From a phage: DNA of 50,078 bases. Positions 951 to 46,917 of this stretch are shown here, piece after piece. Every line of letters starts with the position of its first letter. Positions within the stretch are counted from its first letter, which is position 1. The DNA is taken from the sequence record NC_107631.1. One strand, given 5' to 3'. The notes beneath the pieces are model-generated. The model was not told where the DNA came from and made no database searches. It saw only the letters and a program-made list of their open reading frames with translations. Position numbers and translations under genes: made by a program.

Positions 951-2519
951 ATGTTTAATATTAAGCCAAAACTGAATTACCAACAGATTATTGAGATCGC
1001 AAATAGCACTGGAGTTAATCCGGTGGCGATCGCAATTCGTGAAAACAGTTATGGGGATTCAGTTTCTTTTTGGCAAGATCCGATCGATATCAACAGCGGA
1101 AACGATAAGTTCCCTCTGATTTCGTTAGGTGGCGATAACCTGGTATTCGAATATGCAAAAGCAAAAGCTGAATCAGTCCAGTTCCCGGTTTCATCCGCGT
1201 ATGCTCATTTTATCGGTTGCATCTCAGCCGCGATGCTCGGGAAGTTTTGGGTGCAATATCATGGAGAAGAACAGCCGACAGCACTTTACATGGTAATCAG
1301 TCAGCCACCATCAACAGGTAAATCAGCGATTAACTCAGCGGCGATTACACCTATGCGTGCGGAGATTCAGCGACTGAATGAAGAGCGCAAAAAGGAACGT
1401 ATCCGTTTAACAAGTCAGCTACGTCAGGTCGAGAAGGAAATTAAAAACGATCCGAAGGGTAACACGACGGCGGCGCTGTACGAAGACAAGGAAAAACTGG
1501 AAGAAAAGATCAAGAAGATGGCTGATATTGTTTTTGCGGTATCAGATCCTACACCTGAAGGTCTTGCGAAGGTGGCGGCTGTTCAAGGTCACTTCTCCGT
1601 AATCTCTGATGAGGCAACAGCAATAAATACATTGCTGGGACTGACCTATGGCGGTTCTGATAAGAAATCAAACAGCGAGCTTATCCTTAAGGCGTGGGAT
1701 AAAAACCATATGGAGGTCGCGCGTTCAAATCAGGACAACAACTTATCTCTTTGCCCGGTCGGTTCGATCTGCGTCATTGCGCAGGATGAAACAATCAAGG
1801 GCATAATGGACGCAGGCCAGCGAGGTATCGGTGTATCTGAGCGTTTCCTATTGGTTCGCGAGGAACCGCTTTTAGGTACTCGTATTCTTTGCGATGAAAA
1901 TGGTGATGCGCTGTATAAGGAAGTCGATCGAGGGTTGGTGAGTAAATATTATCGACTCGTGCACAACATTATGAAAGAGGACAGCGTTGTTCTCTCTGTA
2001 AGCCGTAATGCTATGCGTGAATTGAACCTTGCGCGTCAGGCGATGGAGCCGGATTTCGCCGCAGGGGGTAAATACTCTCACTCAATGCTACGCGGTCATC
2101 TCGGCAAGTTCGATAAGCACGCCTTGCGTATTGCTTCAGTTCTCCACACAATCAAGAATTGGGAGGGTGAATCACCGAACCGTTCCAATCGTGAGATAGA
2201 TCTTGAAACAATGCAGGAAGCAATCATGATTTTTAATGAGCTTTCCAGAACTTATCTGTCGTCTGCCAGCGCCGCCGGGTATGCTGGTGATGAGGCTGAA
2301 TCTCGTAAGCTGATTGATGTTATCACTGAGATCGCAAAGAAGAACAAAGGTCGCGCACCTATTCATAGCATTGTTGCAAAGTGCCGTAACGTTACGCCGT
2401 TCAACGGTCAACAGAAAGTAGCTGAGCGAATCGACAGCCTGCTGATCACGCTCGAAGAGATGAACTACACTTGCCGCATTGATGATATTGTTTTCATCAA
2501 TCCTCGACTGATGGGTTAA
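951..2519 (+). CDS. putative replication-associated P-loop NTPase (DnaB-like Walker A)
   Basis: Start moved to Met22 of the track ORF, preceded by AAGGAG; ISQPPSTGKSAINSA resembles the DnaB RPSMGKTA Walker A; function is inferred only. Confidence 0.5.
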   Translation: MFNIKPKLNYQQIIEIANSTGVNPVAIAIRENSYGDSVSFWQDPIDINSGNDKFPLISLGGDNLVFEYAKAKAESVQFPVSSAYAHFIGCISAAMLGKFWVQYHGEEQPTALYMVISQPPSTGKSAINSAAITPMRAEIQRLNEERKKERIRLTSQLRQVEKEIKNDPKGNTTAALYEDKEKLEEKIKKMADIVFAVSDPTPEGLAKVAAVQGHFSVISDEATAINTLLGLTYGGSDKKSNSELILKAWDKNHMEVARSNQDNNLSLCPVGSICVIAQDETIKGIMDAGQRGIGVSERFLLVREEPLLGTRILCDENGDALYKEVDRGLVSKYYRLVHNIMKEDSVVLSVSRNAMRELNLARQAMEPDFAAGGKYSHSMLRGHLGKFDKHALRIASVLHTIKNWEGESPNRSNREIDLETMQEAIMIFNELSRTYLSSASAAGYAGDEAESRKLIDVITEIAKKNKGRAPIHSIVAKCRNVTPFNGQQKVAERIDSLLITLEEMNYTCRIDDIVFINPRLMG

Positions 2520-2523
2520 TGAT

Positions 2524-2931
2524 ATGCTTCTTCTTTTAGATCTGTTCAGGTTCTGCGAAGGTTACGACAAATACACTCGACAGCACATAGCGAAATTTAT
2601 ATACGCCCACAAGGAAAGTGAGCGATTTGCTAAGGCCGCTGGAATGACTCACCGTGAATTTACAAGTGCGCTATCTAAGGAGTTTTGCGCACGTTGCGTG
2701 ACTGAGGGTTATCTTGATTGCAAGGATGGGTTTTACTGGTGCAAGGGAAAGATTAAGCGCCCTGTAATGATGAAGCTGATGTGTATTGATGGCTACAACA
2801 ATCGGTATACGTGGGAAATGATGCACATTGGAGAGATGAGTGATGAAGATTTGTTTGGCGAACGTAGAAACATTGATAGATCGGAACGTCGAATTGTGCG
2901 CAAGGCTCCAGCTTACGAAAGAAGAATTTGA
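2524..2931 (+). CDS. hypothetical protein (Cys-rich, basic C-terminus)
   Basis: 135-aa ORF directly after the previous gene on the same strand; no recognisable motif. Confidence 0.5.
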   Translation: MLLLLDLFRFCEGYDKYTRQHIAKFIYAHKESERFAKAAGMTHREFTSALSKEFCARCVTEGYLDCKDGFYWCKGKIKRPVMMKLMCIDGYNNRYTWEMMHIGEMSDEDLFGERRNIDRSERRIVRKAPAYERRI

Positions 2932-3043
2932 GCAAGGGTTGTTGAGTCTGTTACTCACTTCAATGAGGGCCAGTAACGAAAGCGAGCATAATCTTTGCGA
3001 CCAGGAGGGGGAGTTACTCATTCACGTAAAAAGGTACAAATAA
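2843..3043 (+). CDS. hypothetical small protein, possible overlapping gene
   Basis: ATG 8 nt after GGAGAG; ends just before the bidirectional terminator; overlaps the 3' end of 2524..2931 in another frame, so one of the two may be spurious. Confidence 0.3.
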   Translation: MKICLANVETLIDRNVELCARLQLTKEEFEQGLLSLLLTSMRASNESEHNLCDQEGELLIHVKRYK

Positions 3044-3070
3044 GAAAGGAGGCTAAGCCTCCTTTTTTTC
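3044..3070. terminator. bidirectional intrinsic terminator between convergent genes
   Basis: AGGAGGC-taa-GCCTCCT hairpin flanked by an A-run on one side and T7 on the other. Confidence 0.7.
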
Positions 3071-3457
3071 GTCCTTGCGAAGTGAAAAATAAACCAGCAA
3101 CAGACCAATGAAAACGAGAGGCCAGCCAGCGATAGCGTCGTACCAGTTCCCAGGTTTTGTCACAGTGATTCTTTCAGCGTTAACCGTGTTGGCCTGAATG
3201 GTTGACACTTCAATTGACTTCTTCACGGAAGAGTCAACCTTTCCTACATTGGACTTTTCAACTTTAACATCTCGCTTATCTTCTGATTTTGCGGTTACTC
3301 CTGCTAATTGCTTTGTGTTCTCCTCTCCAATCTGTGCTGTAACTTCAGGTTTAGATCCGATTAAACCGCTCAGGGCAGATGCCATTGAGCAACCTGATAG
3401 AGAAATGACACCAACAGCCACTACAATCGCAATGCATGTTTTCTTCAGTTTCATCAT
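3053..3457 (-). CDS. unimolecular spanin (u-spanin), T1 gp11-like
   Basis: N-terminal lipoprotein signal with lipobox LSGC plus C-terminal transmembrane helix ([13 protein letters not shown]); sits directly after the endolysin gene. Confidence 0.7.
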
Positions 3458-3942
3458 AATTCCTTAACGCAATACGCGTATTCTTCAGCGCGTCGGTTCT
3501 TGAGTCCTCTAGACACTTCGCGCTTTTTGGTTTTTGGGTTGTAGTAGTATACCCATCGCCATAACTGATTGCACGCTTCCTTGTGCTTACTCTGATTTAT
3601 TAGCTTAAGCATTGTAGAAGATCCGAATGCGCCAGTACCAACGTTGAAAGTAAAACTGTACAGTGACGCGCGCATCGTTACCGGAATGTCAACCTTAACC
3701 TTCTTGTCAACGTATCGCTGAGCGACGCCGATATGTTTTATCAGCAATGCATCGCATTCTCGCTTAGTGTATTTCTTACCAGGTATGACGTCAGGCCCGG
3801 TTATTCCGCTGCATACGGTAGGGACTCCGGCGATATCGTAATAAACCTCGTATTCTATACCTTCGATCCGTTCCAGTAGGGTGGGTGTCAACGTCAAAGC
3901 GGCCCCGATGGATGCGCCTATAACGTTATTTTTTAAACTCAT
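3454..3942 (-). CDS. SAR endolysin (GH24 lysozyme, P21 R21-like)
   Basis: Gly/Ala-rich N-terminal SAR segment; [14 protein letters not shown] matches the E-D-T catalytic region of P21-type lysozymes (LEG..YKDIVGVWTVC); GGGGAG RBS. Confidence 0.85.
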
Positions 3943-4525: not shown

Positions 4526-5667
4526 CCTGTCATTTCTGGACGATAGATGAAGCGACCTATTTCCCCAAACTGCTTATCGTAAACAATTACAGCCGCCTGG
4601 CGATATGAGCGCCACCCTCCGCGCGCTGCGTATGCGTCTTTCGCGCCTAACTGACCGTGCACTTCATCAATACCTAACGAGTGTTCAGTGATTGTCTGAT
4701 GATGCCAGTGACCGCTATGAGTATACACATACTTACTCTCTCCGAAGTCTGCACGGAAGTCTGCCGCCATCGCTGCAAGTCGCGTGTCTGCCTTTTTCAT
4801 AGTGTGCCCGTGAGTGTATCCCAATAAGGTGTTTCCCCAGCGAGTCTTATGCAGAATCATAGGACTAACGTCAACGAATACTCGCGGCTCGTCTTCATAA
4901 TATGCAGACATTGCAGCTCGCAGCCAAATCATCCCAGACTGATCGTGGTTCCCTTCGATAACCTGGACCTCGACTTCTTTGTGTTTCATAAGCATTTTGT
5001 CGATGGCGCGACGCACCGAACGAATCGCTACATGCACCAATTTCGCATATCGTGAATCCTGATCTAGAACGTGACCACTTGCCGGGGTAACAGCGTCAAG
5101 GCCGTCAGAGTGAAGGAAGTCGCCGCCGATTAACAGAACAGCCTTCTCTGCGTTCGGCGCAATATCGATCGCGTAATTAAAGAAGTCGCTAAGCACTTTT
5201 TCCGCTACGTCGGTGGAATAGTTCTCACCGCATTCATGCTTATGAGCAAGCGCGCCAATATGAAGATCGAATACCGGATAGAGTGCCAGCTTACCCATCG
5301 CCGTAGTAAGCCCTTGTGAGGTTAGTAGTTCAGTTGGCTTTGCTCGAGGCAGGTCTTCACAGAATGCAATACGCGCCGCTTCCATCATTGCCGCAATCTT
5401 CTCACGGTCCTGATCGGTCTTAACCCAGCGAACTACCTCGGTCCCATCTCCGCGAATCATCGTTGATGTACCTTTTACCATGAATCCTTCCGGCACGTTT
5501 TTAGCAACATGCTCGTTACCGTGGAAGTGGCCTTCTTTTGCAAGTTTTGCGTGACGCGCCTCGACAGTGCGAATGTGCATACCGTACTTTTCCGCGATCT
5601 CGCGAAGTGTAAGTCCGTTCATGCGCTCTTCGACAAGTTGTTCGGTAGTGATTTTAGCTTGTGACAT
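4516..5667 (-). CDS. calcineurin-like metallophosphoesterase with N-terminal HTH domain
   Basis: N-terminal HTH-like segment (LTLREIAEKYGMHIRTV); phosphoesterase motifs DLH, GGDFLHSDG, GNHD, GHT. Confidence 0.7.
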   Translation of the reverse strand: MSQAKITTEQLVEERMNGLTLREIAEKYGMHIRTVEARHAKLAKEGHFHGNEHVAKNVPEGFMVKGTSTMIRGDGTEVVRWVKTDQDREKIAAMMEAARIAFCEDLPRAKPTELLTSQGLTTAMGKLALYPVFDLHIGALAHKHECGENYSTDVAEKVLSDFFNYAIDIAPNAEKAVLLIGGDFLHSDGLDAVTPASGHVLDQDSRYAKLVHVAIRSVRRAIDKMLMKHKEVEVQVIEGNHDQSGMIWLRAAMSAYYEDEPRVFVDVSPMILHKTRWGNTLLGYTHGHTMKKADTRLAAMAADFRADFGESKYVYTHSGHWHHQTITEHSLGIDEVHGQLGAKDAYAARGGWRSYRQAAVIVYDKQFGEIGRFIYRPEMTGSH

Positions 5668-5745
5668 ATTTTAATCCTTACATGATAATGAAATACATTA
5701 CAGAAAATGAAATTAGCGGTGTTAATACTACAGCAAAATAAAGTT

Positions 5746-6147
5746 TCATGCCACAGCCTTTAACCAGAATCCTAGATCCGAAGATTTAAACTCAACAAGT
5801 TTTCCGTCAACCTCAAGCATCATACTGTTTCGGCCTGGTGAGTAGTAACCTATATGCAACTCCTGCTCAATACCGATAGTGCAAAGCACATTAACAAAGT
5901 CAGGTGGCAACCAGTCAGAGAAAGGGATTTGCTTAACCTGTTTTTTCCCAATCCATATAGTCTGGTAGTCATCTGATCTAATGTTTAAGCCTGGAAGGCT
6001 TGTTGTTCTTTGCGTTTTTTCGTTCTCGCTCAATTCTCTTTCCTTCTTCACGATAAAACTCAAGTGATGGGGTGGCTGGCACTCTATGCATTTTTCTAGG
6101 CATATCTTCCATAAATGAAATCTTTCCGTTTGAGATAATGCTAACAT
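5746..6147 (-). CDS. hypothetical ORF, doubtful
   Basis: Overlaps 5978..6250 by about 170 nt in another frame; poor RBS; kept only as a possibility. Confidence 0.2.
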   Translation of the reverse strand: MLALSQTERFHLWKICLEKCIECQPPHHLSFIVKKERELSENEKTQRTTSLPGLNIRSDDYQTIWIGKKQVKQIPFSDWLPPDFVNVLCTIGIEQELHIGYYSPGRNSMMLEVDGKLVEFKSSDLGFWLKAVA

Positions 6148-6250: not shown

Positions 6251-6437
6251 TGGTTAGTTTCTCCACGTCAGAGATGAAGCCTTCGACTTCTTCAACTGAG
6301 CAACGGTAATAAGACATTTTAAGGAAGTTCATAGCAATATCCCAATCGAAGTTGCCGCCTTGCTTGTTCGTAATGTGAACAGCCATTTTTGCGGACTGTT
6401 GAGCGATATTGAAAAAGTTTGCGTTAATGCGTGCCAT
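6228..6437 (-). CDS. hypothetical protein
   Basis: Start moved to Met6, preceded by GAGGAATCAG, the conserved RBS context seen at other genes. Confidence 0.5.
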   Translation of the reverse strand: MARINANFFNIAQQSAKMAVHITNKQGGNFDWDIAMNFLKMSYYRCSVEEVEGFISDVEKLTNADKKTR

Positions 6438-6469
6438 CTTCTGATTCCTCATTTCGTTTCGATGAAATA

Positions 6470-6513
6470 ACTATACCCGACTTTCGCCGGGTAGTTTTAG
6501 CAATTAGTGCTGA
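6470..6513 (-). promoter_or_regulatory. dyad-motif middle promoter
   Basis: CAGCAC-TAA-TTGCTAA then TATAGT 28 nt downstream inside inverted repeat ACCCGGCGAAAGTCGGGT. Confidence 0.5.
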
Positions 6514-6755
6514 ACGATCGTATCAGTTTTAAGTTCCTCTACGTCTTTCTGTATGATTGAAGGCCAATTCTCTATGTATTCATTTTTTATCTCATCGAAA
6601 GACATATCAAGAGAACTAGTGAACTCCCATAGATCGCAACCAATAACATCCTGAGTCAATCCGTTTTGCTCCATAATTTCGCAGCACGTAGCGCGATAAA
6701 GAAGCCATAAACCTTGCTCAGTTAATTTAACAGGAACCATTTTTTCGCTCATCAT
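6504..6755 (-). CDS. hypothetical protein
   Basis: 83-aa ORF overlapping the dam stop/start region; acidic. Confidence 0.5.
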   Translation of the reverse strand: MMSEKMVPVKLTEQGLWLLYRATCCEIMEQNGLTQDVIGCDLWEFTSSLDMSFDEIKNEYIENWPSIIQKDVEELKTDTIVQH

Positions 6756-7465
6756 ACTTTCCTCACCTTTGCTCGTTTGTTTTTAACCGAAGGGCAAATG
6801 CTTGTGATTGGGATATAGTGAGTCTGTTGCACCTCACCTTCTTTAAGTTCGCGCATAATAAAAATTACCGAACCTTTGTTATTGCCGTCTACTGCCTTTC
6901 CAGTTTCACCGGATATGAAAGCCAGGCGACCGGATCGAGCATACTCGTTGCCGTCAATATCTTCTGTCAAGTCAGCCTCAATCCAGATGATTTCAGCCGC
7001 GTGCTGTCGCGCCTCAGTAAACCACGCCGTAGAGTTATCTGTAGGTAAAAGCATATCGATCTGGTTGTTGTGCTCCATTTGCTCAATCGCCTTCTTGACG
7101 AATATATCAGGTCGACTGTAAGGAGGATTTAACCAAACGTGCTTATTCTTTCCCCACCAACGTTTTAAGCAGTTTGTTTCCTGAGAGTAAAACTTCTCGC
7201 AAACTTTATTTTCTTCGCTTGCCGCAGCGTCCAGATCATATTTTCCGTAACGCCCCTCAAGGTATGCGATAACCTCGCGTGGGGTTGACCATAAATCACG
7301 AACAGCGTCAGGCGTATTGGTCCCCTTGTATCTACGTCCTGAAATCTCTTTGCAGGTTGGCGTTTTCAATGCTTGATAATAACCGCCTGATGCTATTGCT
7401 TCGCGAGTGAATGAGCAACCAGTTTCTGCAAAGTCGATAGTTTTGATATCATTAAAGTCTTTCAT
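6752..7465 (-). CDS. dam: DNA N6-adenine methyltransferase (phage Dam type)
   Basis: Catalytic NPPY motif (WLNPPYS); size and context typical of phage Dam-like MTases. Confidence 0.8.
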   Translation of the reverse strand: MKDFNDIKTIDFAETGCSFTREAIASGGYYQALKTPTCKEISGRRYKGTNTPDAVRDLWSTPREVIAYLEGRYGKYDLDAAASEENKVCEKFYSQETNCLKRWWGKNKHVWLNPPYSRPDIFVKKAIEQMEHNNQIDMLLPTDNSTAWFTEARQHAAEIIWIEADLTEDIDGNEYARSGRLAFISGETGKAVDGNNKGSVIFIMRELKEGEVQQTHYIPITSICPSVKNKRAKVRKV

Positions 7466-40215: not shown

Positions 40216-40421
40216 GCCTCTTCTCCTTCTTCTTCGATCGGGGTAAAGAACTGCGTTTTAGTTTCCTGGTTGTAATAAACACCTTCGTCATAATCGCTTT
40301 CTTTTACTGCGATAAAAACATCACAGCCGTCATGCATAAAGTCGCCGCTGTCAGTTTCAATCAGCTCGAATATCTCAGAAGTTTTAGTGCAAGTGAAAAA
40401 CTTATCAGTTGATACCATCAT
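40212..40421 (-). CDS. hypothetical acidic small protein
   Basis: 69 aa; preceded by a dyad-motif promoter cassette. Confidence 0.45.
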   Translation of the reverse strand: MMVSTDKFFTCTKTSEIFELIETDSGDFMHDGCDVFIAVKESDYDEGVYYNQETKTQFFTPIEEEGEEA

Positions 40422-40453
40422 TTTGATTTTCTCTCTTCGTTGTCGATGAGGTA

Positions 40454-40497
40454 ACTATATCAAATCACCCCATCGACGTTTTAGCAATTCGTGCTAT
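40454..40497 (-). promoter_or_regulatory. dyad-motif middle promoter
   Basis: ATAGCAC-GAA-TTGCTAA; TGaTATAGT extended -10 28 nt downstream inside inverted repeat GTCGATG..CATCGAC. Confidence 0.55.
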
Positions 40498-41066
40498 TTA
40501 TTGATGAACGTGGCGGCTATGTGCTGAGCGGTAATTTCTGGATGGCCTTCGACAGAAAAGAAGTCACATTCCTGATAACCGTTGACCCCAATCATATCGT
40601 CCAGGTAGATATAGTCTCGACTGTCATTATCGAAGTTGCAACCGTTGCGATGTATTCGACATAGCTTTACCTGGATATCACCTTCAATCATCTGCAATAT
40701 TTCATCTTTGAATCCACCATCAGTAAATACCGAAAGGGAGTGAGACTCTTTCACCTTGCTTTCCGCTCGCATACCGAAGAAGCGATTTCCGAACTGCGGC
40801 TTGATGACTTCCTCGCTAATCCAGATCATAAACTGGCGAGGGCTTTTACCGTTCAGGATTGATGCTGGCTCTTCTTTATATCGACGGTCCTCATACAAGA
40901 ACATGAAATACTCGTAGTTAGCTTCACCCAGGATTGCCCGGGCAATCTCAAACATTGGCGCTTTGAAGCTGCGCAAGGCTACGTGATCGTAAGTGTCAGC
41001 CAGGATGCATCCGATAGTGTCTTTTCCCGCGCCAGGTGCGCCGTTTAAAATGATAGCTGTTTTCAT
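40494..41066 (-). CDS. P-loop kinase, polynucleotide kinase-like
   Basis: Walker A ILNGAPGAGKDT resembling the T4 Pnk N-terminal kinase domain; AGGGAG RBS. Confidence 0.55.
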   Translation of the reverse strand: MKTAIILNGAPGAGKDTIGCILADTYDHVALRSFKAPMFEIARAILGEANYEYFMFLYEDRRYKEEPASILNGKSPRQFMIWISEEVIKPQFGNRFFGMRAESKVKESHSLSVFTDGGFKDEILQMIEGDIQVKLCRIHRNGCNFDNDSRDYIYLDDMIGVNGYQECDFFSVEGHPEITAQHIAATFINK

Positions 41067-42671: not shown

Positions 42672-43328
42672 TTAAACTACGAAAAACAGCACGATAAGAG
42701 AAATAAGAAGCACGGTAGCCATAGCCAGGTTCGCCAGATTATCAATGTCCTTGTTGGTCAGCTTAGGCTTGACTTTACCATCAACTTCGGTTGGCTTAAC
42801 GCTGTGAATCTTACCCTGTTCGATGCGGAAACCGCCCTTGATTCGACTGGTATTAAATTTCTGCTTCTTCTTGCCGAACGTTGCAAACTTAGTGCCGCCA
42901 CTATTCCAGCGAAGACCCTCGCCGTTGTGAGTTACGGTTGCAATGCGGTTGCGACCCGTGTCGTCGGTAATTACAGCTGCGTGCTTTGCGTTCTCGGTCG
43001 GTACATCGTAGATATTGCCAACGGTAAATTTTTTGGTGTTATCGCTGATACATTCGAATTTCATAGTTTTTACCTCTTTATTATGCAGTTGGTTGATTGC
43101 TTCGATTACGTCGTTAAATTTAACACCATCCACGATTCGATGGAAGATATATTTTGAACTACCGCCATATGGCAGGAAAAGCTCCTGGTATTCGTGACGC
43201 CGCACAACGTTCACGTTACTACCGAACTCATCAACTATAACGAAGTTGTCGTCATTGACGCGAGCGCCTTCGTAGATTTTGCCGTACTTAAAACCAGATC
43301 CGATACTTGATACGCATTCAAATTTCAT
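42672..43328 (-). CDS. membrane-anchored protein with tandem duplicated domain
   Basis: Two repeats each beginning MKFEC(V/I)S...G(K/N)IY; C-terminal transmembrane anchor. Confidence 0.5.
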   Translation of the reverse strand: MKFECVSSIGSGFKYGKIYEGARVNDDNFVIVDEFGSNVNVVRRHEYQELFLPYGGSSKYIFHRIVDGVKFNDVIEAINQLHNKEVKTMKFECISDNTKKFTVGNIYDVPTENAKHAAVITDDTGRNRIATVTHNGEGLRWNSGGTKFATFGKKKQKFNTSRIKGGFRIEQGKIHSVKPTEVDGKVKPKLTNKDIDNLANLAMATVLLISLIVLFFVV

Positions 43329-43612
43329 GGTCTAACCTTCCTGTAAGGTTTGATTGATAACATCACGTATTGCGTGAAGTCGCATTCTTGCTCGTCATAC
43401 CCGCGATTGATGTACGGAGTCACGTCGGTAACATCGGATACCCTGGCGTGAACCTCCCAACCGGTAAACTCATCGCGATCGAACTCTCGTAGCTCAAGGA
43501 TATCACCAACCTGGAAGTTTCTGTCATTGACTCGGAACTCTGCCGTTTTGGTTCCGTTCATTACACCAATGAAATGTACCGGGGCGATTTTTAACTTATG
43601 AGTTTTGCTCAT
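43325..43612 (-). CDS. small beta-barrel protein, possibly ASCH/DUF3850-like
   Basis: 95 aa; weak pattern resemblance only; translationally coupled to the downstream gene. Confidence 0.35.
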   Translation of the reverse strand: MSKTHKLKIAPVHFIGVMNGTKTAEFRVNDRNFQVGDILELREFDRDEFTGWEVHARVSDVTDVTPYINRGYDEQECDFTQYVMLSIKPYRKVRP

Positions 43613-44978: not shown

Positions 44979-45173
44979 TTAAGCCTCAGCAAAGTAAGTG
45001 TTAAAGCCTTTGAGTTTGTAGTCGCTACCTACGCGCACAACGTTCCAGGCAAGGCCCGAGTGATATGCAACCATATCCTCAAGGTCGATCGTGATTTCGG
45101 TTCCTTTCTTGAACAGACCCTTTTCATGAGTTGAGTCGCGCTGAACAACAACCACATCAATTTGAGTTTCCAT
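44979..45173 (-). CDS. hypothetical small protein
   Basis: Start moved to Met23, preceded by GAGGAAACGAAG, identical to the RBS of the gene at 46658..46828. Confidence 0.45.
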   Translation of the reverse strand: METQIDVVVVQRDSTHEKGLFKKGTEITIDLEDMVAYHSGLAWNVVRVGSDYKLKGFNTYFAEA

Positions 45174-45205
45174 CTTCGTTTCCTCTGTATCGTGTCGATG
45201 AGAAG

Positions 45206-45249
45206 ATAATACCCGATCCGCTCGATCGGGCTTTAACAAAAAGTGCTAT
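45206..45249 (-). promoter_or_regulatory. dyad-motif middle promoter (cassette family A)
   Basis: ATAGCAC-TTT-TTGTTAA then TATTAT 28 nt downstream after inverted repeat CCCGATC..GATCGGG. Confidence 0.55.
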
Positions 45250-46060
45250 TCCATTCGCTAATTTTTGGAGGCTTTACAGATTCAACACAGTTCTTCAATA
45301 TCGCACACCTTTCGGCAAGTATGTCTGATTTGCTGCCACCTTTGGAAAGGCATTGATCTACAGCTTGCTTAACGTCATCAGTATCAATCCACTTATCCTT
45401 GTGGATACTCCTCCTGCAAGCCTCAATTGTCACTACCTTATTTATGGCAAGGTACTTAGGAACGTTGCAAGCCAGGTTAGTGCTATCTGCTGAGTTTAGA
45501 GGGTAGTTACCTAAAACTCTTCCATCAAGCATCCTTAGCCCATGCAGTTTTACCTCAACATTAGATTCCTTAATGGCTGAAAAAGCCTCACTTATCCTTT
45601 GCTTCCACCTGGCGGATCTGACTGTTGCAAATTCTCCAGAAGATCCCATGCATACCCATTCCCATTTTTCACATAGACTTATCAGTCTGCTTATTGGCTC
45701 GTGCATATGCCACACCGGAGCTGCCTTACTCTTTAGATCTGAAGGCAACTGAGATATGAGCTTATCATTATCCTCGGCACTGCCAGTTATGTCATCCGGG
45801 ATAACAAAGAATCTCAATTTTGGGTTGTCAAACCAGTCAGGAAGGAAGTTGCAATAAAACTCTCTCCAGTCTTGATTCTTCCCGCTCTTCCACTTTGAGA
45901 ACGCCCCATTATCTATGCATACAGTGTCAGCCGCATCAAAGGCTAATTTTATCTGATCAGGTCGCTCGAATGATACGAATGCACCGCTTCCACGGTGCGC
46001 GATTCGTGCAATCCTTCCCCTATCTCCCCATATTGGAGATCCGTGAAAGTGAATTGTCAT
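45233..46060 (-). CDS. DpdA-like DNA-guanine transglycosylase (TGT family), putative
   Basis: Local matches to TGT catalytic motifs: CIDNGAFS vs LTDSGGFQ, FVIPDD vs MIFDEC, SADSTNLACNVP vs GIDMFDCVMP; overlaps the start of the transporter-like gene. Confidence 0.5.
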   Translation of the reverse strand: MTIHFHGSPIWGDRGRIARIAHRGSGAFVSFERPDQIKLAFDAADTVCIDNGAFSKWKSGKNQDWREFYCNFLPDWFDNPKLRFFVIPDDITGSAEDNDKLISQLPSDLKSKAAPVWHMHEPISRLISLCEKWEWVCMGSSGEFATVRSARWKQRISEAFSAIKESNVEVKLHGLRMLDGRVLGNYPLNSADSTNLACNVPKYLAINKVVTIEACRRSIHKDKWIDTDDVKQAVDQCLSKGGSKSDILAERCAILKNCVESVKPPKISEWNSTFC

Positions 46061-46536
46061 AGTTTAAATTTCCTCATGATAGCTATGATTATAAATGCGC
46101 CAACTGTCTTAGCTGCGAATTGAGCTAATGAAACATCAATCATTATGCTTCCGAATGCTATCATTGGGAACGCCATAGAGTCAATTGCAGCCGACACTGT
46201 ATTTGCCGGGATTGATTTGCTGTAGAAGTCACCACGCTTCAACTTGAACGTTATGGCGCTACCAGTTCCAGCAAGGATTACTGATGATACTGATGCAACA
46301 GCTATCATTCCTGCACTGGGGTCTATAATCACTGTAGCAATCCCAGCTACAAAGCAAGCTAGCATCGAATACCAGAACCCAAAATTGTGCTGTATCTTGT
46401 CCCTGATAACCATGTCTGCTGATATGATTACGAGTGCATTGATTGGGGTTGACCACACCCCAAAGTACGCTACTGACAGGTTTGCTGCAACATACAGCAA
46501 AACAAATAATACAATCATTACTGATAATTTACGCAT
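46057..46536 (-). CDS. YhhQ/QueT-family (DUF165-like) 7-deazaguanine precursor transporter, putative
   Basis: About 6 predicted transmembrane helices; F-KLKRGDFYSKSIPANTVSAAIDSMAFPMIAF aligns with E. coli YhhQ FNRLRQSRRWWLAPTASTLFGNVSDTLAFFFIAF. Confidence 0.55.
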   Translation of the reverse strand: MRKLSVMIVLFVLLYVAANLSVAYFGVWSTPINALVIISADMVIRDKIQHNFGFWYSMLACFVAGIATVIIDPSAGMIAVASVSSVILAGTGSAITFKLKRGDFYSKSIPANTVSAAIDSMAFPMIAFGSIMIDVSLAQFAAKTVGAFIIIAIMRKFKL

Positions 46537-46657
46537 ACGGCCTCCGTGGAAAAGATTGGTAGGATCTGGATGTTTGGTCTAACCTGCCTGATTCTGCTTA
46601 CGATTGATTCATCACTTAGAGGATAAAACACACCATTTACGAGCCATCCTATCCTAA

Positions 46658-46828
46658 TCATTCGTCGATCTCTCCAATATACTTAGCCTCTTTCCACTGT
46701 GAGTATGCATCTTGCTCGCTGAACCCGTAGCCAGTAAAGCCACCTCCCTGGCACATGAACCGCTTAAATTTCATGATTCCTTTGTAGCTGTCGCCGCGGT
46801 CGGTGATTTTGCATTCTTCGTTAATCAT
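46658..46828 (-). CDS. hypothetical small protein (about 56 aa), not in ORF track
   Basis: ATG preceded by GAGGAAACGAAG; coordinates approximate. Confidence 0.4.
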   Translation of the reverse strand: MINEECKITDRGDSYKGIMKFKRFMCQGGGFTGYGFSEQDAYSQWKEAKYIGEIDE

Positions 46829-46859
46829 CTTCGTTTCCTCGTTCGTTGTCGATGGGATA

Positions 46860-46903
46860 ACTATACCAAGCTATCCCGATCCAGCTTTAACAAAAAGTGC
46901 TAT
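46860..46903 (-). promoter_or_regulatory. dyad-motif middle promoter (cassette family A)
   Basis: ATAGCAC-TTT-TTGTTAA then TGgTATAGT 28 nt downstream inside inverted repeat GGGATA..TATCCC. Confidence 0.55.
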
Positions 46904-46917
46904 TTACCGTTCAGTGC

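Follow-up and report, generated by a model that had tools for sequence, protein, structure and literature searches.

The DNA analysed here (phage sequence record NC_107631.1, 50,078 bp in full, hereafter the window) comes from a T1-like phage and is 85-93% identical to Tunavirus genomes of 49.4-50.6 kb. Among its 76 non-overlapping open reading frames (ORFs) are genes of the terminase, portal, capsid and tail, of lysis, of the primase/helicase and of recombination, and the window is therefore effectively a whole Tunavirus genome. Our subject is a pair of minus-strand genes in which a reading made from the letters alone (the sequence-only reading) had seen a DpdA-like transglycosylase and a YhhQ-like transporter. 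Two ORFs with ATG start codons were found exactly at 45233-46536, where that reading had placed two overlapping genes:

45233..46060, minus strand: DpdA-family DNA-guanine transglycosylase homologue, 275 aa
46057..46536, minus strand: short-form VUT/YhhQ-family membrane protein, 159 aa, putative 7-deazaguanine precursor importer

The two genes overlap by 4 nt (CTATGA, the ATG of the DpdA gene being laid over the TGA of the VUT gene), and such an ATGA overlap is typical of translational coupling, which we consider likely for this pair. A GGAGG sequence is present 6-7 nt upstream of the first ATG of the pair. Both genes are real, with hundreds to thousands of protein homologues and matches to PHROG families.

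Regarding the 275-aa protein, membership in the DpdA/TGT family was confirmed by several independent comparisons. The protein matches phrog_887 at 2e-76, the same PHROG that the experimentally validated DpdA of phage CAjan matches at 8e-96, and CAjan DpdA used as tblastn query recovers the 275-aa ORF directly (E=5.7e-6). An hhalign comparison of the profile of the protein's clade with CAjan DpdA gave E=3.2e-7 and a probability of 93% over 156 columns. Identity to the DpdA of Salmonella phage 7-11 amounts to 34% across 98% of the length, and the counterparts in HK106, SEN1, PEAT2 and SfI are 40-52% identical; all five phages were entered as DpdA-only phages in Hutinet et al. 2019. Scans with Pfam (including TGT PF01702) and NCBIfam yielded zero matches for this protein, as did searches of PDB sequences, whether started from the single protein or from a 45-sequence profile, and hhalign found no match to E. 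coli Tgt (E=0.21). CAjan DpdA likewise finds nothing in the PDB sequence search, and because a validated enzyme also fails, curated profiles and PDB sequences are an insensitive criterion for phage DpdAs. A sequence-based transitive mapping of the 275-aa protein onto structure 7ui4 via CAjan DpdA was impossible for the same lack of a PDB match.

The AlphaFold2 model of the 275-aa protein is an eight-stranded TIM barrel with a mean predicted local distance difference test score (pLDDT) of 94.5, and this predicted (beta/alpha)8 fold is closest to TGT-family structures, with ArcTGT and bacterial TGT among its structural neighbours. We regard the active site as the most telling evidence for the assignment. 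D50-N-G-A-F54, D89, H118 and D192-S193 are invariant in the 45 clade members, and D50-x3-F54, D89, H118 and D192 remain invariant across to CAjan DpdA; in the model D50/F54, D89, H118 and D192 are located at the C-terminal ends of strands 3, 4, 5 and 8, respectively. In the crystallised bacterial DpdA, Asp95 is the general acid/base, Phe99 stacks, Asp130 and His181 contact the base edge and Asp256 is the nucleophile (PMC10164549). Mapped by sequence and secondary structure, D50/F54, D89, H118 and D192 correspond to Asp95/Phe99, Asp130, His181 and Asp256. The 275-aa protein contains no CxCxxC motif, and in the 45-member clade no cysteine is invariant, with only C137 nearly so. It ends about 80 residues past strand 8 and has no Ins8-like domain, while the basic residues R148, R155, R176, R181, K202 and R251 are conserved in the clade. 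Taken together, the family evidence and the intact active site, with zinc site and Ins8 missing, indicate that the protein is a minimal, zinc-site-less DpdA of the 'singleton gamma-proteobacterial phage DpdA' clade, as judged from its sequence.

The YhhQ-like call for the 159-aa protein was also upheld. The protein matches phrog_4899 at 1e-26, and the 'YhhQ' of CAjan, gp41, falls into the same PHROG; gp41 ('putative preQ0 transporter/YhhQ') is exactly 159 aa long too and shares 26% identity (E=1e-7). Among the aligned homologues, 28 of 31 match the Pfam family Vut_1 (PF02592) at E<=0.01 (best 1e-14), and 25 of 35 database relatives carry a precomputed PF02592 match. E. coli YhhQ itself is annotated as queuosine precursor transporter (COG1738). 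The sequence-only reading had aligned the C-terminal half of the protein with E. coli YhhQ by eye; a match does exist at the profile level, but it is weak, invisible to BLAST and extends over more than the C-terminal half, since hhalign pairs residues 34-148 of the 159-aa profile with residues 50-191 of YhhQ (E=1.9e-4, 114 columns). In this alignment the conserved polar residues D41, R45, S82, D119 and K143 are paired with YhhQ residues of like type. A tblastn search of the window with E. coli YhhQ did not recover the VUT gene. As for the profile searches that had been proposed as a check on both proteins, PF01702 and NCBIfam gave no match and Vut_1 stayed below its cut-off, whereas homology was supported via the PHROGs, the CAjan proteins and the homologues. 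Structure prediction, proposed likewise, agreed with both calls, giving a TGT-like TIM barrel for the one protein and, for the other, the fold of an S-component of energy-coupling factor (ECF) transporters. The latter model has six predicted transmembrane helices, in line with the six-helix membrane protein that had been described, at a pLDDT of 94.3, and it fits S-components for thiamine, riboflavin, folate, biotin and cobalt equally well. Whole-window Pfam and NCBIfam scans revealed no ECF energising module. A role as holin or in superinfection exclusion was considered and rejected in view of the VUT homology and the S-component fold. Family and fold of the 159-aa protein are well supported, and preQ0 and/or preQ1 are its presumed substrates. 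According to papers citing Zallot 2017, E. coli YhhQ transports preQ0/preQ1 and is, as far as these papers describe it, the only characterised member of that branch.

To what extent the two genes occur together was assessed in IMG/VR, where we searched the flanks of the 80 loci most similar to the VUT gene (out of at least 502) and, in reverse, those of the best 80 DpdA loci. A DpdA of this clade is directly adjacent on the same strand in 77 of the 80 VUT loci; of the other three loci, one is truncated by the end of its contig. The order of the genes varies, with DpdA first in 70 loci and VUT first in 7. After de-replication an adjacent DpdA is found in 33 of 35 clusters at 90% identity and in 13 of 15 at 70%. 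Conversely, a VUT gene is present at only 7 of the 80 DpdA loci. From this asymmetry the short VUT appears to behave as an optional accessory to this DpdA and almost never occurs without it, which is the expected pattern for a substrate supplier. FolE, QueD, QueE or QueC were found within 10 kb of none of the 160 loci. PEAT2 provides an example of the pair in a described phage (NC_044940/MG432137, 16866-18061), the short VUT gene ending exactly at the start of the DpdA gene. RefSeq names this gene product 'VUT family protein', but the table of Hutinet et al. 2019 missed it and gives PEAT2 as DpdA-only; the short VUT form is therefore probably undercounted in published tallies of phage YhhQ homologues. 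As a separate observation, a distant DpdA of the clade (30% identity) in Caulobacter phage DMCA (5708-6729) is directly preceded by an abutting 98-aa '6-carboxytetrahydropterin synthase' (QueD-like) gene, with no further que genes annotated nearby.

The window itself carries no FolE, QueD, QueE or QueC gene, as the sequence-only reading had maintained, and hence no Queuovirinae-type 7-deazaguanine cluster. Tblastn with the four CAjan proteins returned nothing below E=1 in the window. Pfam scans of all 76 ORFs revealed no QueC, PTPS/QueD, radical-SAM QueE, GTP cyclohydrolase I, QueF or TGT family (in one of the whole-window scans this negative covers 25 of the 29 families listed), and full NCBIfam lists for the two proteins and 66 other ORFs contained no QueC, QueD, QueE, FolE, QueF or TGT family. 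The Dam-like methyltransferase that had been reported alongside the pair is indeed present:

6752..7465, minus strand: phage Dam N6-adenine methyltransferase (PF05869 E=1.7e-69, TIGR01712 5e-71, NPPY motif)

This gene is 38 kb away from the cassette that holds the pair (described below) and has no link to it. At the gene level, the earlier phrase 'two separate DNA-modification systems' describes the situation fairly.

As interpretation of the pair we favour salvage and insertion, in which the VUT protein imports a free 7-deazaguanine and DpdA swaps it for guanine in phage DNA. We consider this model rather probable, the remaining probability being shared by the rival readings discussed below and by explanations outside those considered. 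The VUT protein would reside in the inner membrane as a solitary S-component-like carrier and import, most likely, preQ0 and/or preQ1. The translationally coupled DpdA homologue would then exchange selected guanines in replicated phage DNA by a TGT-type double displacement, in which D192 would be the nucleophile and D50 the general acid/base, D89 and H118 would recognise the edge of the base and F54 would stack on it. As the phage has no folE, queD, queE or queC, the base must come from the host pathway and/or the medium; the queuosine pathway of the host, the medium or both may serve as source, host-made preQ0 being an alternative or an additional supply. The outcome would be sequence-specific, probably low-level dPreQ0, dADG (2'-deoxy-7-amido-7-deazaguanosine) or dPreQ1 in virion DNA, besides N6-adenine methylation by Dam, with DNA rather than RNA or protein as the likely target and a possible protective effect. 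Precedents exist: in CAjan, deletion of folE or queC lowers the level of dPreQ0 12-fold but leaves incorporation from host metabolism (PMC7544227), the DpdA-only phages 7-11 and MED16 carry dADG, and the genes yhhQ, tgt and queA are encoded by E. coli K-12.

Several observations weigh against this model. On the side of the proteins, the 159-aa sequence alone scores only E=0.13 and 13 bits against Vut_1, for which the cut-off is 27.2 bits, and the hhalign probability of its match to E. coli YhhQ is only 48%. The short-form VUTs have no demonstrated substrate, and the proposal that they transport preQ0/preQ1 appears to rest on guilt by association. The Cys3-His zinc site that defines TGT and bacterial DpdA is absent from the 275-aa protein. 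On the side of function, deletion of yhhQ had no effect on modification in CAjan (PMC7544227), and modification in tested DpdA-only phages amounts to traces at most: 0.02% of G in phage 7-11 (50 dADG per 10^6 nt) and 0.13% of G in MED16, whose DNA is unprotected from the restriction enzymes tested, while the DNA of the DpdA-only mycobacteriophage Orion is unmodified. With a host YhhQ already present, the need for a phage copy is left unexplained. Finally, in mEp021-like temperate phages the same VUT type (phrog_4899) adjoins a phrog_757 'DNA methyltransferase' instead of DpdA:

mEp021 1491-3759 and MagusPhagus 1439-3729: run of Dam, a DUF6378 protein, VUT and a 252-aa phrog_757 protein

That the 252-aa protein of mEp021 might be a cryptic DpdA was ruled out by its membership in phrog_757 and by hhalign against the DpdA profile (E=0.51); no Pfam domain was found in it. 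Apparently frameshifted phrog_757 homologues were noted near the corresponding site of the Tunaviruses LHE71 and ADB-2, and none in the window.

The rival that survives best, although we judge it unlikely, holds that DpdA uses host-made preQ0 alone and that the VUT protein carries another molecule (a vitamin or nucleobase) or is redundant, in which case the pair would not form a unit of supply and insertion. It can point to the DpdA loci without VUT (73 of 80 in IMG/VR, as well as HK106, SfI, BTP1 and 7-11), to the silent yhhQ deletion in CAjan, where host preQ0 alone sustains modification, to the VUT of mEp021-like phages with its non-DpdA partner, and to PF02592 being a generic 'vitamin uptake transporter' family whose fold suits five S-component classes equally. 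Yet the adjacency of DpdA at 77 of 80 VUT loci, in both orders and with overlapping frames, would be difficult to account for if the two did not share a pathway; in the E. coli branch of the family the one member that has been characterised, again according to papers citing the original work, carries preQ0/preQ1; and CAjan retains the same short VUT form within its deazaguanine cluster.

Much less probable is a reading in which the 275-aa enzyme acts on tRNA of host or phage, re-tuning translation with an imported queuosine precursor. The label 'queuine tRNA-ribosyltransferase' in PHROG and GenBank would suit it, but this label has been transferred by homology alone; ArcTGT and bacterial TGT are among the structural neighbours, but the protein gives no profile match to E. 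coli Tgt or PF01702 and is devoid of both the Zn subdomain and the C-terminal RNA-binding domain, TGTs being 375-577 aa long. The very small amount of modified DNA in tested DpdA-only phages could likewise speak for a target other than DNA, whereas the nearest validated relatives do act on DNA, as known for CAjan and, from liquid chromatography-mass spectrometry of DNA, for phage 7-11. Furthermore a TGT is already encoded by the host, and there are no tRNA genes alongside the pair. Least probable of all is that this enzyme of TGT fold has a target other than nucleic acid or serves in counter-defence (Cap10-like protein deazaguanylation, or consumption of a defence deazaguanine, with the VUT protein supplying or removing the molecule): Cap10 does lead DpdA among the structural neighbours, but by just 0.3 Z units at 12% identity and with no link at the sequence level, while the sequence homology of the 275-aa protein is to phage DpdA, its conserved arginines and lysine (R148 to R251, as listed above) fit nucleic-acid binding, and no QueC-like (Cap9-like) partner was found in the window scans.

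Salvage and insertion may be taken one step further, and here we are speculative: short VUT and minimal DpdA might constitute a self-contained salvage module, with modification depending on extracellular preQ1, preQ0 or even queuine released by gut microbiota or host turnover. We find this extension conceivable and on the doubtful side. If it were true, the environment and not the genome would set identity and density of the mark, possibly with a base new to Drexlerviridae DNA, and the mark would play a part in the otherwise unexplained variation of restriction sensitivity between T1-like phages.

The pair is part, and probably the working core, of a larger unit, a minus-strand accessory cassette of four overlapping genes in the order orf56, orf47, VUT, DpdA (45233-46828), located in a region of small ORFs upstream of the terminase genes. 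The two additional genes and the elements at the boundaries of the cassette are:

46658..46828, minus strand: orf56, first cassette gene, with an ATGA overlap with orf47
46518..46661, minus strand: orf47, small conserved cassette gene, with a 19-nt overlap with the VUT start
46826..46904, minus strand: upstream copy of an intergenic repeat of about 80 bp, right cassette boundary, ending in the ATG of orf56; alignments to JMPW1 and ADB-2 break here
45171..45250, minus strand: downstream copy of the repeat of about 80 bp, left cassette boundary, ending in the ATG (45173) of a Gp54-like gene
45211..45231, minus strand: terminator-like hairpin GCCCGATC-GAGCG-GATCGGGT, directly after the DpdA stop and within the downstream repeat copy

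No PHROG or Pfam match was obtained for orf47 and orf56. Most Tunaviruses are without the four-gene cassette, and LHE71 is the only other Tunavirus carrying all four genes (identities: DpdA 96%, VUT 89%, orf47 85%, orf56 96%). The Rogunavirinae phage Opt-719 has the same four genes in the same order, uniformly 55-58% identical, with orf47 at the same position (55%, E=6e-17) and orf56 at 58% (E=4e-19); the gene order in LHE71 and Opt-719 was checked gene by gene. In other Rogunavirinae phages, tblastn matches to both genes of the pair were obtained in Sadiya, and to VUT alone in Phleasolo and Opt-79. Since orf47 and orf56 were found in Drexlerviridae relatives only and do not occur in the IMG/VR VUT-DpdA loci, the idea that they are general companions of such pairs was refuted. 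The presence of the same four genes in LHE71 and Opt-719 suggests that the cassette has moved within Drexlerviridae, plausibly by recombination at the repeats.

Alignment with the cassette-free Tunaviruses JMPW1 and ADB-2 places the breakpoints at about 45250 and 46826, that is, at the two repeat copies, which are 80% identical to each other. The copy at 46826-46904 reads AATAGCAC..TTTGTTAAAGC, a variable segment, a -10-like TATAGT, CATCGACA and then GAGGAAACGAAGATG, and the consensus of the repeat is AAATAGCAC..TTTG.TAAA, a variable segment, GGTATAGTTATCTCATCGACA and then GAGGAAACGAAGATG. The conserved GAGGAAACGAAGATG that closes each copy comprises the ribosome-binding site and start codon of the next minus-strand gene, and the copies contain a -10-like TATAGT or TATTAT. 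A third copy is found at 40417-40500 and a partial one at 6435-6477, with more copies in LHE71, JMPW1 and ADB-2; the empty site of JMPW1 has one copy that aligns to both copies of the window. The repeat looks like a shared promoter/leader element that doubles as a recombination site for exchange of accessory genes, the promoter role being an inference. A sigma-70 consensus scan did not call a promoter in the repeat. Terminator-like sites were no more frequent than in shuffled sequence (3 found, 2.6 expected), and the hairpin at 45211-45231 is poorly conserved in the other repeat copies. Because the counts of the promoter and terminator scans in the window do not exceed those of shuffled sequence, both the hairpin and the promoter reading of the repeat are weak.

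Beyond the cassette, all nine ORFs around the pair encode small proteins of no known function, a Gp54-like or a DUF3850 protein, the latter two being:

44979-45239, minus strand: Gp54-like gene directly downstream of the cassette (PF25180 'Phage antiviral trigger protein Gp54', E=6.9e-35)
43325-43612, minus strand: 95-aa DUF3850/ASCH-like protein, a few genes downstream of the cassette (PF12961 3e-16; phrog_986 'RNA-binding protein')

As the Pfam and PHROG matches of the Gp54-like protein begin at residue 23, its annotated start is probably too far upstream and the true start would be at 45173. In Opt-719 a homologue of part of CAjan gp40 (5594-5836, E=1.7e-14) is situated about 750 bp downstream of the DpdA gene; gp40 is a gene of the CAjan deazaguanine cluster without assigned function. 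A counterpart of gp40 was not found in the window (tblastn E=1.9). Elsewhere in the genome the scans detected three dispersed HNH_3 endonuclease genes, a polynucleotide kinase/phosphatase-type HAD domain (PF25109) and a Cor-like exclusion lipoprotein (NF047972).

Regarding novelty, the concept of DpdA-only and DpdA+YhhQ phages is already published and was tabulated in 2019, and in sequence the window pair is almost the same as genes that stand unannotated in the deposited phage LHE71. What is added here are the family assignments in Tunavirus, a zinc-less minimal DpdA whose active site is intact, an S-component fold for the short VUT, the repeat-bounded four-gene cassette and the asymmetric, near-obligate linkage of VUT to DpdA. 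The IMG/VR census moreover qualifies the published 'no correlation' statement on phage YhhQ homologues, which is a modest addition. Of the predicted classes of 7-deazaguanine phages, the DpdA-only class is both the largest and the one least understood, its tested members showing at most trace modification. With the cassette in a T1-like phage growing on E. coli K-12, for which queuosine-pathway and yhhQ mutants and precursor feeding are routine, the salvage hypothesis becomes directly testable. Drexlerviridae are for the most part highly sensitive to restriction, and they differ in this respect in ways that no genomic feature accounts for (BASEL). Because these differences lack a genomic explanation, the rare DNA-modification cassette is a candidate determinant of restriction sensitivity in the family; otherwise it is an expected variant of a described system.

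Among known systems, the bacterial Dpd system (DpdA/DpdB/DpdC of Salmonella Montevideo; 7ui4) has a DpdA of 413 aa that contains four insertions as well as a zinc site (CxCx2Cx22H) and depends on the DpdB ATPase (PMC10164549), whereas the phage protein has neither zinc motif nor Ins8 domain. DpdB- or DpdC-like genes and restriction components were found neither among the nine neighbouring ORFs nor in the whole-window scans. E. coli YhhQ has 221 aa, compared to 159 aa for the window VUT, and there is no BLAST-level similarity between them. In LHE71 and the Rogunavirinae phages named above these genes are annotated just as hypothetical or as 'VUT family protein'.

As for phages, the sequence-only reading was right to call the pairing known in principle. 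Hutinet et al. 2019 listed 76 DpdA-only phages, suggested that these rely on host preQ0 or on uptake, and pointed to YhhQ homologues in phages; their Supplementary Data 1 contains Clostridium phage CDKM15, halophage eHP-6 and Sinorhizobium phage phiLM21 as phages with DpdA and YhhQ only. Likened by gene content, these three follow the same two-gene logic, with consecutive accession numbers and no biosynthesis genes, in hosts and lineages unrelated to the window phage. The DpdA-only phages of 'Group 3' in the same publication (7-11, HK106, SfI, SEN1, BTP1, PEAT2) show 34-52% full-length identity to the window DpdA and share with it the missing preQ0 genes and a compact DpdA of 240-280 aa; none of those listed belongs to Drexlerviridae, most are without VUT, PEAT2 excepted, and modification data exist for 7-11 only. 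Validated phage DpdAs are those of CAjan, 9g, nt-1 and VH7D. Of these, CAjan (Seuratvirus, Queuovirinae; DpdA gp35, YhhQ gp41) has a complete preQ0 pathway of its own and substitutes about 25-32% of its G, in contrast to the window phage, which is without those genes. Its DpdA and YhhQ genes are separated by 2.3 kb in which biosynthesis genes lie, whereas the window pair overlaps, and identities are low (about 22% for DpdA, 26% for VUT). Nevertheless, both window proteins fall into the PHROGs of their CAjan counterparts, the VUT proteins are equal in length at 159 aa, the DpdAs share the motifs DxGAFS, PxxH (PVWH in the window, PCFH in CAjan), HG(L) and xDS, and the two phages have the same host, E. 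coli K-12.

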